29,026 nucleotides of DNA from a virus. Its lineage: Duplodnaviria; Caudoviricetes. The stretch lies in IMG/VR virus record IMGVR_UViG_3300032260_000018, positions 1 to 29,026 of that record; one strand, written 5' to 3'. Shown here in pieces: positions 125 through 6,682 of the stretch. The position numbers were made by a program, and so were the translations under genes. The notes beneath the pieces are model-generated. The model ran no database searches, was not told the origin of the DNA, and saw nothing but the letters and a program-made list of their open reading frames with translations. Position 1 is the first letter of the stretch; each line of letters starts with the position of its first letter.

Positions 125-208
125 CATTGCAAATGAGATGTAGCCAACACTGAAATTAACTTAAAAACCGCAAAGCTTTCGCGGTCTTTTCGATTTGCTT
201 TATTATAC
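119..208 (-). mobile_element. attC-like recombination site 1 (degenerate)
   Basis: AGATAAC-ATTGC-AAATGAGA ... TTTC-G-ATTTGC-TTT-ATTATAC. Imperfect inverted repeat with an extra G in the right arm and an internal hairpin ACCGC/GCGGT. Confidence 0.6.
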
Positions 209-221
209 GACGGTGATAGCA

Positions 222-518
222 ATGACGGCGTGGAACAGAGCGTTTAAAGACGACTATGTAGAGCCAAGCCCTATTAGTAATAATGATATGGCTAAAGTTC
301 TAGAGTGCGAACTAAAACCATCCTGCGGGCTAAAAACCTGGAATGATGTATTTCTTAATGGCGTATATCTTGGAATGGTTAGAACAAAGCTTGGCGGGAA
401 TCATGAGTACAGACTGAGCCGTAACGACTCCCCGGTTTATTGTGGGCAAATAGGTAATACCGGAGACCCAAAGCATGCCAGGGCAATACTGGCCTTACGT
501 ATAAAGCTAGTCGTATAA
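222..518 (+). CDS. Hypothetical cassette-borne protein (start uncertain: TTG195, ATG222 or later)
   Basis: ORF track 195..518. The stop TAA lies within GTATAAC (513-519). Confidence 0.55.
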   Translation: MTAWNRAFKDDYVEPSPISNNDMAKVLECELKPSCGLKTWNDVFLNGVYLGMVRTKLGGNHEYRLSRNDSPVYCGQIGNTGDPKHARAILALRIKLVV

Positions 519-644
519 CGATTTAAATCACCTGCTTGCGGGTGATGAAATGAACTGTTGCAAATAATGCAATAGTTGGACGAAGAGAAGAAATTTAACT
601 CACGCACCGCAGTAGCAAGTCAGCGTGGATTTTGATGGTTATAC
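513..644 (-). mobile_element. attC-like recombination site 2
   Basis: GTATAAC GATTT AAATCAC CTG CTTGC ... GCAAG T CAG C GTG G ATT TTGATG GTTATAC. Perfect 7-bp outer cores and paired inner arms with three unpaired bases (T, C, G) on the right arm. Confidence 0.8.
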
Positions 645-646
645 AT

Positions 647-675
647 AAAAAAGGCCAGCGCTCTAGCTGACCTTT
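647..675 (-). terminator. Intrinsic terminator-like hairpin acting on minus-strand transcripts
   Basis: AAAAAAGGCCAGC-GCTCTA-GCTGACCTTT. On the minus strand this is a stem followed by U6. Confidence 0.5.
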
Positions 676-766
676 AGGTGGGCAAATACAGAATACTTCC
701 CCGGTGTGAGAGATTTAATATTACACCAAAGATAAAAAGCTGGCAATTATTGTAAATGGAGGAATT

Positions 767-937
767 ATGGCAAAAGCACAACGAGATTTGAAAGTTCATT
801 TAACGCTAACAGAAGAAGAGGCAATTGATATATATATTCACCTAAACCCCAAATACCATCCGAACAAGACAGAAGAGATAAAGACTGCGATTAAAGATGC
901 ACTTGGCTACGAGCCAATTGAGGCACCAGATGTATAA
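767..937 (+). CDS. Small hypothetical cassette protein, 56 aa (MAKAQRDLKVHLTLTEEEAIDIYIHLNPKYHPNKTEEIKTAIKDALGYEPIEAPDV)
   Basis: Strong GGAGG SD just upstream of ATG767. The stop lies within GTATAAC (932-938). Below the ORF-track length cutoff. Confidence 0.75.
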   Translation: MAKAQRDLKVHLTLTEEEAIDIYIHLNPKYHPNKTEEIKTAIKDALGYEPIEAPDV

Positions 938-1055
938 CGTTGTAAATAACCTGACCACGGGTAATGGAATAAGGAGCTGAATAGCATGAATACAACCACA
1001 AATATTGCAAACAACCACCGCTTTAGCTGGTCTGCGTTGAAATGCATGGTTATAC
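932..1055 (-). mobile_element. attC-like recombination site 3 (contains the SD and start codon of the next gene)
   Basis: GTATAAC GTTGT AAATAAC CTG ACCA ... TGGT CTG C GTT GAAA TGCATG GTTATAC. Same spacing as site 2. AAGGAG and ATG986 lie in the loop. Confidence 0.75.
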
Positions 1056-1552
1056 ACCGTAAACGCGAGGTTTTGATTGCCGCTGGTGTTACCGTGCTGG
1101 CTATTTTTATAGGGGTTGGATTTAACTCCAAAATACATGAGACAGCCCAATGCTCTGCGCTATCAACCATAAAAATGATTGCAAATTACTCTGAAACAAC
1201 TACCGCCATAGATATGGAAGGCAATCCGTATATTGATACTGATTACTGGACTGAAGATGCCTCTAATACCTATTACGTTGAAATGCTCAACCTTGATGTT
1301 ATTAAATCAAATATAGCCCACACAATGAGCGGGAACATAGCGGTACCTATAGGTGAATTTCAGTACGATGAAACAATGAAGCGTGATCGGCATTTTGATA
1401 GTTTTAGTGTTAACAGGAATTCAGAAATACACCAGTCTTTTGCCGATGGTGAATACGTGAGTATTAAGCCAAGCCAGTACGAAGAATGTTTTTTAAACAT
1501 CGGAAGCATGGTTGAGGTTAAGTACTGGTACCAATTCGCCTACGGTGTATAA
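986..1552 (+). CDS. Hypothetical membrane-anchored protein (cassette-borne)
   Basis: 188 aa with an AAGGAG SD and one hydrophobic segment (VLIAAGVTVLAIFIGVGF). The stop lies within GTATAAC (1547-1553). Confidence 0.75.
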   Translation: MNTTTNIANNHRFSWSALKCMVIHRKREVLIAAGVTVLAIFIGVGFNSKIHETAQCSALSTIKMIANYSETTTAIDMEGNPYIDTDYWTEDASNTYYVEMLNLDVIKSNIAHTMSGNIAVPIGEFQYDETMKRDRHFDSFSVNRNSEIHQSFADGEYVSIKPSQYEECFLNIGSMVEVKYWYQFAYGV

Positions 1553-1645
1553 CAGGGGCTAGACATAACAAGGAACAACAATAGGGGGATGGCTGACAAA
1601 TGGACTCGGCATTATATTCGTGCAGCGGGGGTAGTTGAATTAAAA

Positions 1646-1723: not shown

Positions 1724-4285
1724 ATGCCAAGTAACTTAGAGTTCGTCAACGCTATCTTTGGGAAAGACGCACCTTGGTGCCATGTTACGGATTTCCAATA
1801 TGACCCACTTAACATACCTGATGACAAAAGACACATCGCATGGGGTGGGGACTACTTTAGTCGTTACACTCTCACTCCTGACACCAACCAGTACTTCACC
1901 ATCTCATGCTTCTATGCAGACGACACCGGAAAGGCTCGCCGCCGAAAGGCGTTATATCGGCACACTCCTTGCATAGTGCTTGATGACGTGCGTGAGAAAT
2001 TGTGTGAAGAACAAGTTAAGAAGCTTCCCTCACCAAGTTGGATCTTAGAGACCTCACCAGGGAGTGAGCAGTGGGGATACATCCTAGCTGAACCATGCAC
2101 AGACCGTGCCAGGGTTGAGAACCTGCTTGACGGTCTGGTAGCCAACGGCCTGGCTCCTGGTGGCCGCGACCCAGGCATGAAGGGTGTGACACGCTACGTC
2201 AGGCTGCCAGATGGTGTGAACACCAAAGCCAGTAAGATGGTGGACGGTCAGCCGTTCAAGTGCCGTATGCTGCTGTGGGAGCCGTTCAGACGCACCACAA
2301 TGGAAACACTTGCTGCACCGTTTGCAGTTGACCTGGACAAACCCCGCCGTGAGCAGTGTGTCGATGGTGCAGCAGATATCCCCGACCACCCCTTGCTGCA
2401 GATCCCTGACACTATTCACATTAAGGAGGTGCGTTCTGATGGACGATTCGACATTACTTGCCCGTGGGTTGAAGAACATACGGGAGCTGATAACAGCGGT
2501 TCAGCGATCTTTACCAACGAAGACGGAAGTATTGGGTTTAAGTGTCATCATGGTGCTTGTCAGTCTCGTACTGGTCGTGACTTATTTCAATTTATAGAGG
2601 GTGAGAAACCTGGTTTCGGTTCTAAGTTCGCATCCTGGCGCGGTCTTAGAGCGTTAGCACCGGTGAGTACGTTAAATTTTTATGGACCTGGCGAGGCGCA
2701 AGCCTCGTCTCCCACCAGTGACATCCAACAAAAGGATTGTGAACCACAGGATGTCGCCTCCGCCGGACTTGACCAACTCCTCAACCAGCTCCGACAAGTT
2801 AACCCTTCCTCAGCTGACGCTCGATCAACAGCGTCAACTCTCCTGCAACTGGTGGATTCTCTACCGGCGATAGAGAAGAAGCACTGGCATGATCAAGTCT
2901 GTGACATCATGCACTGGAGTAAAGCAGACTTTAAACCCATACTTAGAGAGCTGCGTGAGCAGTGGTATCAGAAAACAAAAACAGCAGACTGGTACAATGA
3001 CTTCGTTTATCTACGAGAACAGAACCTCTTCTACAACTTCAAAACCTACATCTTTTTCACCCCTGAAGGATTTCAAAACTCCTACGCTGATAAAGAGACA
3101 GAAGCAAGGAAAGAGGCGTTGCAAGCGGGTCGAGTCAAGAAGGTGGACAAGCTCGACTTCGCACCAAAGCAACCCCGATACTTCACCGACGCGGGTATTG
3201 ACTACGCCAACGCATGGTCACCGGATGATGAGATTGCAAGCACTCAAGGTGATGTCACCCGCTGGTTGAGTCACTGGGATGCCATGGGGTGGGGTGAGTA
3301 TCGTGACCACATGCTGAAGTTCATGGCGTACACCATCCTGCACCCGGACGTTAAGATCAACCACATGCTGATGTTAGGTGGAGGTGAGGGCTGCGGTAAA
3401 GATTTCCTGCTCTACCCGCTCACCATGGCTATGGGGCGCAACAGCACCACTATTGACGGTGAAGAGCTGTTGACGGACTACCGGGGGTATCTGCTATCAA
3501 CCAAACACCTCCACATCAATGAGGCAGAGCTTGGCACCCGTCAAGAGGCCGTTGCCATCAGTAACAAGCTCAAACCCCTGGCTGCGGCACCACCGGACAC
3601 ACTGAGAGTGAATGAGAAGTTCATGAAGGCGGTGAAAATACGGAACATAGTCAACTGCACCATGACCACCAACAGTCAGCTCCCGGTGCGTCTGAACGGC
3701 CCCAGTCGCCGCATCTATGCCATGTGGTCTCATCTCAACATACGAGGTGAAGATGGTAACGTTACGGCCGAATGGCAGCGCTACTGGCGTGAAAGCTGGG
3801 AGTGGATGAAGAGTGAGGGCGCTGCAGCTTGCGTGTGGTACTTGCGAAACTGCGTGGATATCAGCAACTTCAACCCTGGTGCCCCACCCCCCATGACTGA
3901 GTTCCTGCGTGAGATACAGGAAGCCTCCAAGTCACCGGCTCAGGTTACTATAGAAGAGTTCATCCGCAAGCGAGTGTTCCAGTGTGACCTACTCACTGCT
4001 GCTGATATGTCAGCTGTGTTACGCGCTGCTGAGTTGAGTAGTGAGTTGAGGAACCTGATGTCCATGGAGCCAAGCTGGTTCACACCCACCAGAGTAGGTC
4101 AGGTGCTGCGAGAGATGCCTCAGTGCAGGCAGGTGAAGGCGTACAAGAGTCGATACTCCATGCGTGTCTGGATCCTACGTGATGTGGTTAAGTATGAGGA
4201 GCTGGGGTGTGGGGCCAGGCTGGTTGAGGAGTACGATCGCCAGCAAAAGGAAATAAAAAAGGGAAATTCCATCAGGGCGGTTTAA
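1724..4285 (+). CDS. Primase-helicase: RepB-type primase domain, Zn finger and DUF5906/NrS-1-like helicase
   Basis: Motifs CIVLDDV and PSWILETSPGSEQWGYIL (RepB-like primase), CPW..EH...CHHGAC (Zn ribbon), Walker A GGEGCGKD, LHINE (Walker B-like) and TTNS...SRR. Confidence 0.85.
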   Translation: MPSNLEFVNAIFGKDAPWCHVTDFQYDPLNIPDDKRHIAWGGDYFSRYTLTPDTNQYFTISCFYADDTGKARRRKALYRHTPCIVLDDVREKLCEEQVKKLPSPSWILETSPGSEQWGYILAEPCTDRARVENLLDGLVANGLAPGGRDPGMKGVTRYVRLPDGVNTKASKMVDGQPFKCRMLLWEPFRRTTMETLAAPFAVDLDKPRREQCVDGAADIPDHPLLQIPDTIHIKEVRSDGRFDITCPWVEEHTGADNSGSAIFTNEDGSIGFKCHHGACQSRTGRDLFQFIEGEKPGFGSKFASWRGLRALAPVSTLNFYGPGEAQASSPTSDIQQKDCEPQDVASAGLDQLLNQLRQVNPSSADARSTASTLLQLVDSLPAIEKKHWHDQVCDIMHWSKADFKPILRELREQWYQKTKTADWYNDFVYLREQNLFYNFKTYIFFTPEGFQNSYADKETEARKEALQAGRVKKVDKLDFAPKQPRYFTDAGIDYANAWSPDDEIASTQGDVTRWLSHWDAMGWGEYRDHMLKFMAYTILHPDVKINHMLMLGGGEGCGKDFLLYPLTMAMGRNSTTIDGEELLTDYRGYLLSTKHLHINEAELGTRQEAVAISNKLKPLAAAPPDTLRVNEKFMKAVKIRNIVNCTMTTNSQLPVRLNGPSRRIYAMWSHLNIRGEDGNVTAEWQRYWRESWEWMKSEGAAACVWYLRNCVDISNFNPGAPPPMTEFLREIQEASKSPAQVTIEEFIRKRVFQCDLLTAADMSAVLRAAELSSELRNLMSMEPSWFTPTRVGQVLREMPQCRQVKAYKSRYSMRVWILRDVVKYEELGCGARLVEEYDRQQKEIKKGNSIRAV

Positions 4286-4300
4286 AAGAAGTGGTGGTAG

Positions 4301-4328
4301 AAAAGCCCGCGGTTAGGCGGGCTTCTTT
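4301..4328. terminator. Bidirectional intrinsic terminator between convergent genes
   Basis: AAAAGCCCGC-GGTTAG-GCGGGCTTCTTT, located between the primase stop (4285) and the operon end (4333). Confidence 0.8.
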
Positions 4329-4332
4329 GGTG

Positions 4333-4985
<653 letters not shown>

Positions 4986-4989
<4 letters not shown>

Positions 4990-5137
4990 TCTGGTCTCTC
5001 CAGGTTATGCTGCTTAATAAGAGCCTCTTCTATGGTCACAGCAGCGTTCTCTCGCTCTCTCAGCCACTCACAGAGCCACCGGGGTAGTCTGGTGTTGTAA
5101 GGCTCTTTACGGTGCTGCAGCGGGGCTGTGGGGCGGC

Positions 5138-5141
<4 letters not shown>
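4986..5141 (-). CDS. Small putative DNA-binding (RHH-like) protein, 51 aa (MSRPTAPLQHRKEPYNTRLPRWLCEWLRERENAAVTIEEALIKQHNLERPE)
   Basis: ATGA overlaps with both neighbouring genes. The 'RP...K.P.N.RLP.WL.EWL.......IEEAL' pattern fits a beta-strand followed by two helices. Absent from the ORF track. Confidence 0.7.
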
Positions 5142-5826
<685 letters not shown>

Positions 5827-5830
<4 letters not shown>

Positions 5831-6006
5831 GATTTTGTCTCCAGTATTATCTCAAATGACTCAGGGGTTAAGGTTTTATCCATGAAAAGTTTACGCTTGC
5901 AGAAGTCTGGGATTACCTCTCTTAAATGCCGTTCAGCGCTTTCTCTAGTATCAAATAGAGCATGTAAGGTTGAATGATTCTTTTTCTCAACTAGTTTGTA
6001 TTTCAT
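5827..6006 (-). CDS. Small hypothetical protein, 59 aa (MKYKLVEKKNHSTLHALFDTRESAERHLREVIPDFCKRKLFMDKTLTPESFEIILETKS)
   Basis: Fills the gap exactly with ATGA overlaps at both ends. AGGAG lies upstream. Not in the ORF track. Confidence 0.75.
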
Positions 6007-6206
6007 AATGCTTGCTCCTGCAGTACAGCTGGCGACAGCATCTCGTGGGCTTCTGAGAGCGTGCTCACGCTCACCAGTCTGATTAGTGGGTTGATATGGT
6101 CAGCTGGTAGCCAGAAACTCACCACGTTACCATTACTCCATGCTGTGAGGCCGCGTAAGCGTACGGTGGTGAGGATGTGGCACTGTTGGCGGGGTTGGGG
6201 TTTCAT
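6003..6206 (-). CDS. Hypothetical protein
   Basis: 67 aa ORF packed within the operon (2-bp gap on one side, ATGA overlap on the other). Confidence 0.6.
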   Translation of the reverse strand: MKPQPRQQCHILTTVRLRGLTAWSNGNVVSFWLPADHINPLIRLVSVSTLSEAHEMLSPAVLQEQAL

Positions 6207-6208
6207 GG

Positions 6209-6682
6209 TTAAGGTTCCAAGATTTTATAAACAGATTTGAACAGTTCAGGTAGCATGACTTCATTAATCTGTTTCACCATAGGTTCATCCTTCATGAAAT
6301 CTCGATTTCCACTACTTGATAGATGACTACCACCACGCCCCAGCAGCTCAGCAACTTCTTTGAGGGTGTAGAATGATTTCATCAAGTCGGATAATTCCCA
6401 CGACTCTTCATTAGTTAGCATTGACTCTTGCAGAGTTTCGTTGATGTGGTACAAATATTTACCATCGTCCTGCTTGCCCACCAACCCAGACCAATGAGAA
6501 TGTGAACTGATATCTTTGGAATTAGCGGGATTAGCTTGACTGGTGTAAACCTCAATGTAACCGAAACCCCAGTACCAACCACAATCCCAGCTAGCAGCCT
6601 CTAACCAAATTAAGTCGTCATGTTTGTCTTTACCAAGTAAGTAGCAGTCTTTACCGAAAGCGTGTGATTTTTGCTTTTTCAT
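6209..6682 (-). CDS. Conserved phage hypothetical early protein
   Basis: 157 aa with a GAGGA SD and the aromatic motif WLEAASWDCGWYWGFGY. Confidence 0.75.
   Translation of the reverse strand: MKKQKSHAFGKDCYLLGKDKHDDLIWLEAASWDCGWYWGFGYIEVYTSQANPANSKDISSHSHWSGLVGKQDDGKYLYHINETLQESMLTNEESWELSDLMKSFYTLKEVAELLGRGGSHLSSSGNRDFMKDEPMVKQINEVMLPELFKSVYKILEP

Follow-up and report, generated by a model that had tools for sequence, protein, structure and literature searches.

Results

Organization of the left end of the contig

The window, by which we mean the whole analyzed stretch of 29,026 bases, is a viral contig (64% complete) of a podovirus-like phage that encodes primase, terminase, head-tail adaptor, major capsid, and tail proteins. 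Its major capsid protein shares 80-81% identity with counterparts in six cultured Vibrio phages. The left end carries four plus-strand frames, each closed by a TAA that lies within an xxxTAAC core (at 122-124, 516-518, 935-937, and 1550-1552). The first of these frames is the 3′ end of a gene truncated by the contig start (2-124, plus strand; open from 2 to 121 and followed by TAA), whose stop codon sits in the core of the attC-like site A and for which neither PHROG nor Pfam gave a match. To its right follow three units with predicted bounds, all annotated on the minus strand: cassette 1 (125-518), composed of the body of site A and ORF1; cassette 2 (519-937), which holds the body of site B, an 11-codon frame (635-670), a hairpin (650-675), and ORF2, and which, judging from its sequence, looks decayed or rearranged; and cassette 3 (938-1552), made of the body of site C and ORF3 and adjoining an attI-like site D. 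A terminator-like hairpin on the minus strand (1675-1692) separates the array from the flanking gene of the phage backbone, a DNA primase-type gene on the plus strand (1724-4285; PHROG 1156, E 9.8e-20).

Eight terminator-like hairpins were found in 1-1800, with 1.7 expected. Three strong ones (163-189, 650-675, and 1675-1692) lie on the minus strand in or beside the array, and minus-strand hairpins of this kind would stop transcription antisense to the cassette genes. When the region was checked for a Pc promoter reading in from the attI-like site, seven promoter-like matches were obtained (5.0 expected), all on the minus strand, and any of them acting as Pc would likewise run antisense to the cassette genes. 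A search of 1-2000 against Rfam returned six weak matches, every one far under the gathering score. Two adjacent minus-strand genes (4333-4989 and 5138-5830), with Imm5-like and DUF7666 domains, contain long Ala-rich low-complexity tracts made of 9-15-nt repeats.

attC-like sites and the terminal half-site

A covariance model (R1), trained on 47 sites of other contigs, found three matches in the contig, all on the plus strand, the next best hit having an E value of 0.19; the minus strand of the array gave no match. Site A (119-208; 38.5 bits, E 1.7e-5; predicted crossover 124/125) is degenerate, with one change within the GTT of the core, the right-hand core starting with A instead of G. Site B (513-644; 132 bp; 39 bits, E 1.4e-5; predicted crossover 518/519) forms a long hairpin that closes the two cores on either strand, with the inner boxes paired and the central spacer unpaired on both strands. 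Site C (932-1055; 124 bp; 30.2 bits, E 6.7e-4; predicted crossover 937/938) has two mismatches in the inner box and contains AAGGAG (971-976) and an ATG at 986. Sites B and C possess exact inverted 7-bp cores (GTATAAC and GTTATAC), which deviate from the R/Y pattern at one or two positions. At all three sites, an unpaired base is present on the 3′ arm of the plus strand, 9 nt from the core, as compared with 8 nt in the aadA7 reference site. A site finder run at default thresholds missed sites A, B, and C, while its relaxed version gave polarity scores (minus versus plus) of 13/10, 12/11, and 9/8, respectively. The R1 model pairs comprised 152 compensatory cells versus 49 after shuffling, in sites that had been chosen for pairing. 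To judge from their sequences, the contig's own sites are worn; with a core G of site A lost, the inner box of site C mismatched, and cassette 2 seemingly rearranged, the array may no longer be active.

A blastn comparison of site B with named phages yielded nine short matches, all attributable to chance, and the one match of a first pattern scan (L001) was rejected as a chance match inside a gene. An identical solitary 108-bp attC-like site, with no neighbors detected, occurs in three viral contigs (L010, L023, and L029).

The right end of the array is formed by site D (1547-1569, minus strand; predicted crossover 1552/1553), an attI-like terminal half-site without a hairpin partner: R1 gave no match there, and no hairpin follows 1547-1553. 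Its center measures 6 nt versus 7 nt in the Shewanella attI printed in PMC9892861. Its bases recur at other array ends, 20 nt being identical in L164 and 13 nt in L031, though these two and the present record share a common assembly prefix and hence are not independent samples. A variant of site D terminates two arrays of the L012/L019 contig. The conservation at these array ends begins at TAAC. A metagenome scan for the 20-nt motif retrieved only this record and the L164 contig; two further matches to the motif (L165 and L166) were discarded as chance, since they fall within an integrase-like reading frame and have no array beside them.

Pairing between the ends of each unit

The initial annotation had claimed that the two ends of each unit are complementary beyond the core and pair with each other better than with their neighbors in the array. 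This was confirmed for all three units. Positions 1049-1061 and 1541-1553 are perfectly reverse-complementary (13/13, versus 8 with the in-array partner), 638-646 pair with 930-938 (9/9, versus 7 in the array), and 202-211 pair with 510-519 at nine of ten positions, the first base being A and not G. In the full pairing matrix, every right-hand core had as its best partner the left-hand core from the opposite end of the same unit. Furthermore, the comparison of folding energies that had been proposed along with the claim (DNA parameters, plus strand) showed that the circle junction was more stable than the in-array junction and both swapped-flank junctions at each site: −14.7, −7.9, and −12.4 kcal/mol for the circle, in-array, and best swapped junctions of site A, −23.6, −21.5, and −22.7 kcal/mol for site B, and −20.0, −12.9, and −12.5 kcal/mol for site C. 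Given the 7-bp core, the chance of the extra paired bases was 2.6e-4 for unit 3, 0.064 for unit 2, and 0.016 for unit 1, so that only unit 3 is convincing by itself.

The comparison was then extended to related loci, namely five from a search with the primase and 31 viral stretches from a pattern scan that was blind to gene direction. A finder requiring paired arms and one extra base, which fixes positions 1-4 of each paired run, identified 57 distinct viral units in 20 of the 36 loci; these units are not phylogenetically independent, and several loci lie on the same contig. In agreement with the claim, the mean run was 8.2 bp between a unit's own ends versus 5.0 bp in the array, the own-end run being longer in 51 units and shorter in four (Wilcoxon p = 1.4e-9), with a mode of 9. 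At positions 8-10 the matching fraction was 0.65 for own ends, 0.35 in the array, and 0.36 after shuffling (maximum of 1000 shuffles, 0.44), and the excess of own-end pairing ended before position 14. The outcome that would have refuted the claim, own ends pairing no better than random ones, was not observed.

As a bacterial control, 120 loci (L038-L157), mostly from cyanobacteria, were treated in the same way and supplied 18 units in 14 loci, in which the corresponding values at positions 8-10 were 0.63 and 0.35, the former matching that of the viral units. An earlier study describes self-pairing past the 7-nt boxes, to 9-11 consecutive complementary nucleotides, in most cassettes (Bouvier et al. 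2009, PMC2727003). Own-end pairing is thus a published general property of cassettes, neither phage-specific nor new, and, being equally strong in the bacterial controls, it serves as a marker of cassette identity and not as a discovery. In this role it supports the assignment of the three units to integron-type cassettes. That part of the initial interpretation, according to which they are cassettes whose ends pair best when circularized, was upheld by the pairing matrix, the folding, and the 57-unit comparison; it is likely that the cassettes moved as DNA circles, and they may have been inserted one after another, as the initial annotation proposed.

The longest complementary ends that we saw belong to the last unit of the L006 array (5673-5690 and 6432-6449; 17 of 18 bases), which is followed by a half-site and carries a gene with a PAPS-reductase domain.

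Polarity of the cassette genes

Own-end pairing is silent on polarity, because the same gene is flanked by both cores in either orientation, and other evidence had to be used here. According to PMC2727003, the unpaired (extrahelical) base is what sets the recombining bottom strand. Of the phage sites tested with IntI1, R1 recognized all four that were examined (attC1 and attC2 of TJE1, and attC1 and attC2 of PH101) on their published bottom strands, which, according to PMC9892861, recombine better than the top strands. Since the same model matches our contig on the coding strand, the cassette genes are predicted to be inverted relative to their own attC sites, the minus strand being the top strand of attC. 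In a typical cassette the gene is encoded by the top strand of attC and runs up to R″; the genes of this contig are predicted to lie on the bottom strand. The initial annotation had read the cores that precede each gene (GTTATAC) as R′; under the inverted polarity they are R″ boxes, and each attC body belongs with the gene on its right. Its cut between AA and C on the plus strand happens to coincide with the predicted crossover.

The related arrays point in the same direction. In 49 of the 57 viral units, versus one of the 18 bacterial units, the longest ORF ran antisense to the top strand of attC, and 50 of the 57 had an antisense ORF with its stop in the core. The same type of attC shows normal gene polarity in bacterial chromosomes, mainly those of cyanobacteria. 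At array ends, 11 of 17 arrays showed a core matching the far end of the terminal unit on the gene-3′ side, as compared with four of 17 on the 5′ side (p = 0.007; five of the 22 arrays were excluded for flanks that were too short), and some of the 3′ half-sites (L007, L008, L013, L020, L028, and L037) may instead be undetected full sites. In our contig, site D sits where the inverted reading expects an attI. A single case, the gene common to L035 and L036, whose identity extends up to TAAC and is followed by different attC bodies, argues for a crossover between AA and C. The location of AAGGAG and of the ORF3 ATG within site C also speaks for inversion. The comparison of L019 with L026 as boundary evidence was dropped, as their common stretch is a backbone gene and no cassette. 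In 102 units a stop codon fell within the core; of these, 53 had an open frame that crossed the upstream GTT (25 of them in frame with it), and 27 had an ATG in the attC body. Starts inside attC are common without being the rule.

The closest relative by primase (64%), L002, carries about 13 arrayed sites (2888-6337) downstream of the primase gene, whereas the array of our contig lies upstream, so the position of the array varies between close relatives. Many of the L002 genes begin inside a site and read through the core. L006 likewise carries a long array of similar sites, while the primase relatives L003-L005 (50%) have none. Two contigs (L012/L019/L032 and L025/L026/L034) are single complete phage genomes with at least two separate arrays on opposite strands, and in the former, near-identical attI-like sites terminate both arrays.

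Cargo genes

ORF1 (222-518, plus strand) encodes an orphan protein of 98 amino acids (107 if translated from TTG 195) and terminates at a stop codon within the core of site B. It had no match in PHROG or Pfam, and among proteins of 58-188 amino acids only ORF1 itself was found. ORF2 (767-937, plus strand; 56 amino acids), preceded by its own GGAGG at 758-762 and stopping in the core of site C, belongs to no PHROG or Pfam family. ORF3 (986-1552, plus strand; 188 amino acids) has an N-terminal hydrophobic stretch and represents an unnamed family with 95 homologues, of which the eight inspected all lack a name; the ESM Atlas offered no usable match. Word-indexed protein searches recovered nothing beyond our own ORF1 and ORF3, and when the cargo genes were sought in other viral contigs, none was detected, nor was any cassette found in a second context. 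The 16 cargo genes tested in related arrays included those of a Lar-like protein and an HTH protein.

The ribosome-binding site and start codon of ORF3 lie within site C, which adds about 20 residues to the protein, and these residues are largely missing from 20 aligned homologues. At the other end, the C-terminal tyrosine is conserved among the 20, ten share Y-G, and two end exactly like ORF3. The homologue in Pseudomonas phage PspYZU05 is an ordinary overlapping gene of an operon with no attC match nearby. Three homologues of the site C body (in L012, L015, and L031) are conserved from TAAC to GTTAT and then run into unrelated downstream sequence. As the body thus precedes unrelated sequence in three other contigs, attC bodies and genes may have been joined independently, and in cassette 3 the 5′ arm could be the derived copy.

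Recombinase genes

The 29-kb contig gave no match to PF00589 or TIGR02249. It starts 118 bp to the left of site A, and an intI gene would be expected on the sequenced side, next to site D, where the primase gene follows and no IntI is encoded. Six complete array-bearing genomes (G001, G004, G006, G009, G017, and G029) also had no PF00589 match; such matches were present in four of the 30 records searched (frames of 349-415 amino acids), and IntI scored above the cut-off in none of 12 records. Because complete array-bearing genomes lack a recombinase match, we assume that the enzyme mostly acts in trans, and the simplest source is a host IntI, since related sites are substrates of IntI1. IntI is under SOS control, and infection may for this reason induce the host enzyme. 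R1 gave no match in four cultured Vibrio phages whose capsid proteins are 80-81% identical to that of the contig. Four features annotated as "CRISPR spacer" in Vibrio phage 1.185.O (L173, 28101-28318) lie inside coding sequence and are probably a coding repeat.

Discussion

The locus is probably an attC-cassette array of a phage, devoid of an integrase gene, in which the genes are inverted and the complementary ends likely reflect the hairpin of each circle. We propose that the gene-coding plus strand would be the recombining bottom strand, which folds when single-stranded. A trans-acting recombinase (most likely a host IntI) would cut between AA and C at the four predicted crossovers (124/125, 518/519, 937/938, and 1552/1553), so that an attC body and the gene to its right would be excised as a circle. 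In this circle, the gene's own stop region would become the R′ arm, lengthening the stem to 9-13 bp, and re-entry would take place at half-site D. A phage promoter on the left would drive the cassette genes, whose translation signals would come from the attC body.

The same inverted cassettes might be handled by an enzyme other than IntI, such as a tyrosine recombinase of the Xer-like type that has no IntI insertion and is derived from another phage or has since been lost. The 6-nt center of site D and a 6-nt spacer in about 20 of 47 related sites are in line with this, and the distance from the unpaired base to the core, one base longer than in aadA7, may together with that center point to another enzyme; a recombinase gene of the phage's own could also lie in the part missing from the incomplete contig. 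We nevertheless regard a Xer-like enzyme as unlikely, given that R1 recognizes sites recombined by IntI1, that bacterial chromosomes carry this type of site with genes in the usual orientation, and that four of the 30 records matched PF00589. Still less probable is a dead relic of a single past capture, whose repeats now act as translation signals and as short homologies for phage recombination. Degenerate sites, the decayed appearance of cassette 2, and the lack of a recombinase in the contig would suit such a relic, as against the perfect 13-bp pairing of cassette 3, both copies of which lie in coding sequence, and the compensatory changes in related arrays (counted in sites chosen for pairing); besides, this explanation addresses present activity and not origin.

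It is very improbable that we are dealing with an ordinary CALIN of normal polarity, in which the top strand would be the plus strand, the crossover would fall between G and TT before the genes, and each body would go with the gene on its left. R1 found nothing on the minus strand, the right end is a half-site and no full attC, ORF3 starts within body C, and a homologue of site C scores 15 versus 10 in favor of the inverted reading. These observations outweigh for us the resemblance of the stops in the xTAAC core to classical R″ boxes, the occurrence of such polarity in TJE1, and the closeness of the polarity scores in the contig. As for hairpins that arose by chance or serve regulation as terminators, with no role in recombination, the enrichment of terminator-like hairpins in 1-1800 speaks for them, and yet three matches in both sequence and structure (E 1e-5 to 7e-4), together with the significance of own-end pairing across arrays (p = 1.4e-9), largely refute this explanation, which we consider scarcely credible.

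With three attC-like sites and no tyrosine recombinase gene in the contig, the array is a CALIN as defined in PMC4889954. Phage CALINs, including that of Pseudoalteromonas phage PH101/H101, have already been published (Qi et al. 2023, PMC9892861), and our array resembles them in having at least two attC sites, no intI, a phage genome as its host, and small hypothetical genes. In PH101, three annotated genes between sites are antisense to the attC top strand, as is predicted here, and unannotated plus-strand starts follow two sites, so that its polarity may be mixed; TJE1, unlike our array, has normal polarity. The main text of PMC9892861 makes no mention of inverted genes, of start codons within attC, of an attI-like site at the array end, or of pairing between a cassette's own ends. 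Our literature search, in which subscription journals were thinly covered, found no paper describing inverted phage cassettes, and the consulted parts of PMC3053210, PMC8876359, PMC10661359, and PMC13323075 contain nothing on the inversion of cassette genes.

With bacterial cassettes (PMC2727003; Cury et al. 2016, PMC4889954), our units share inverted 7-bp cores, inner boxes, an unpaired base, a variable center, chimeric junctions, and self-pairing to about 9-11 nt. They differ from them in that (i) the genes are predicted to lie on the bottom strand, with the stop codon in R′ rather than R″, (ii) the attC body stands at the 5′ end of the gene and is able to encode the start, and (iii) the unpaired base stands one nucleotide farther from the core, while intI is absent and a Pc appears to be so as well. 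The "inverted integrase" integrons (PMC13323075) are also a variant of orientation, but there it is intI whose direction is reversed with respect to the array, whereas here the genes of the cassettes are predicted to be reversed with respect to their own attC sites, and intI is lacking. Inverted integrase-free arrays, present in many viral contigs with phage-type genes, matter more than own-end pairing, and they would let phages swap accessory genes in modules by means of a host enzyme.

How new cassettes arise is stated to be unknown in PMC4889954. We tentatively raise the possibility, itself rather doubtful, that phages run a mirror-image cassette pool of their own that displays the birth of cassettes. 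The natural ...TAAC stop of a phage gene would supply the GTTA recombination point on the other strand, and a ready-made attC body, with its ribosome-binding site, start codon, and leader, would join the 5′ end of that gene. The R″ arm would be copied from the stop region of the gene or selected to match it, and the unit would circulate among phages via a dedicated attI-like site, with a recombinase that may be borrowed or as yet unrecognized. ORF3 would fit this joint reading, with its homologue-like Y-G-V-stop end, its first 20 residues derived from attC, and a homologue in a T4-like phage that is a plain operon gene. The occurrence of the same attC body in junction with four unrelated genes, together with a cargo homologue outside cassettes, makes the direction of end-matching directly testable.

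Finally, the PH101/H101 locus (L160, 25919-27987) contains a duplicated site with duplicated flanks, and inverted annotated genes seem to be mixed there with unannotated forward starts.
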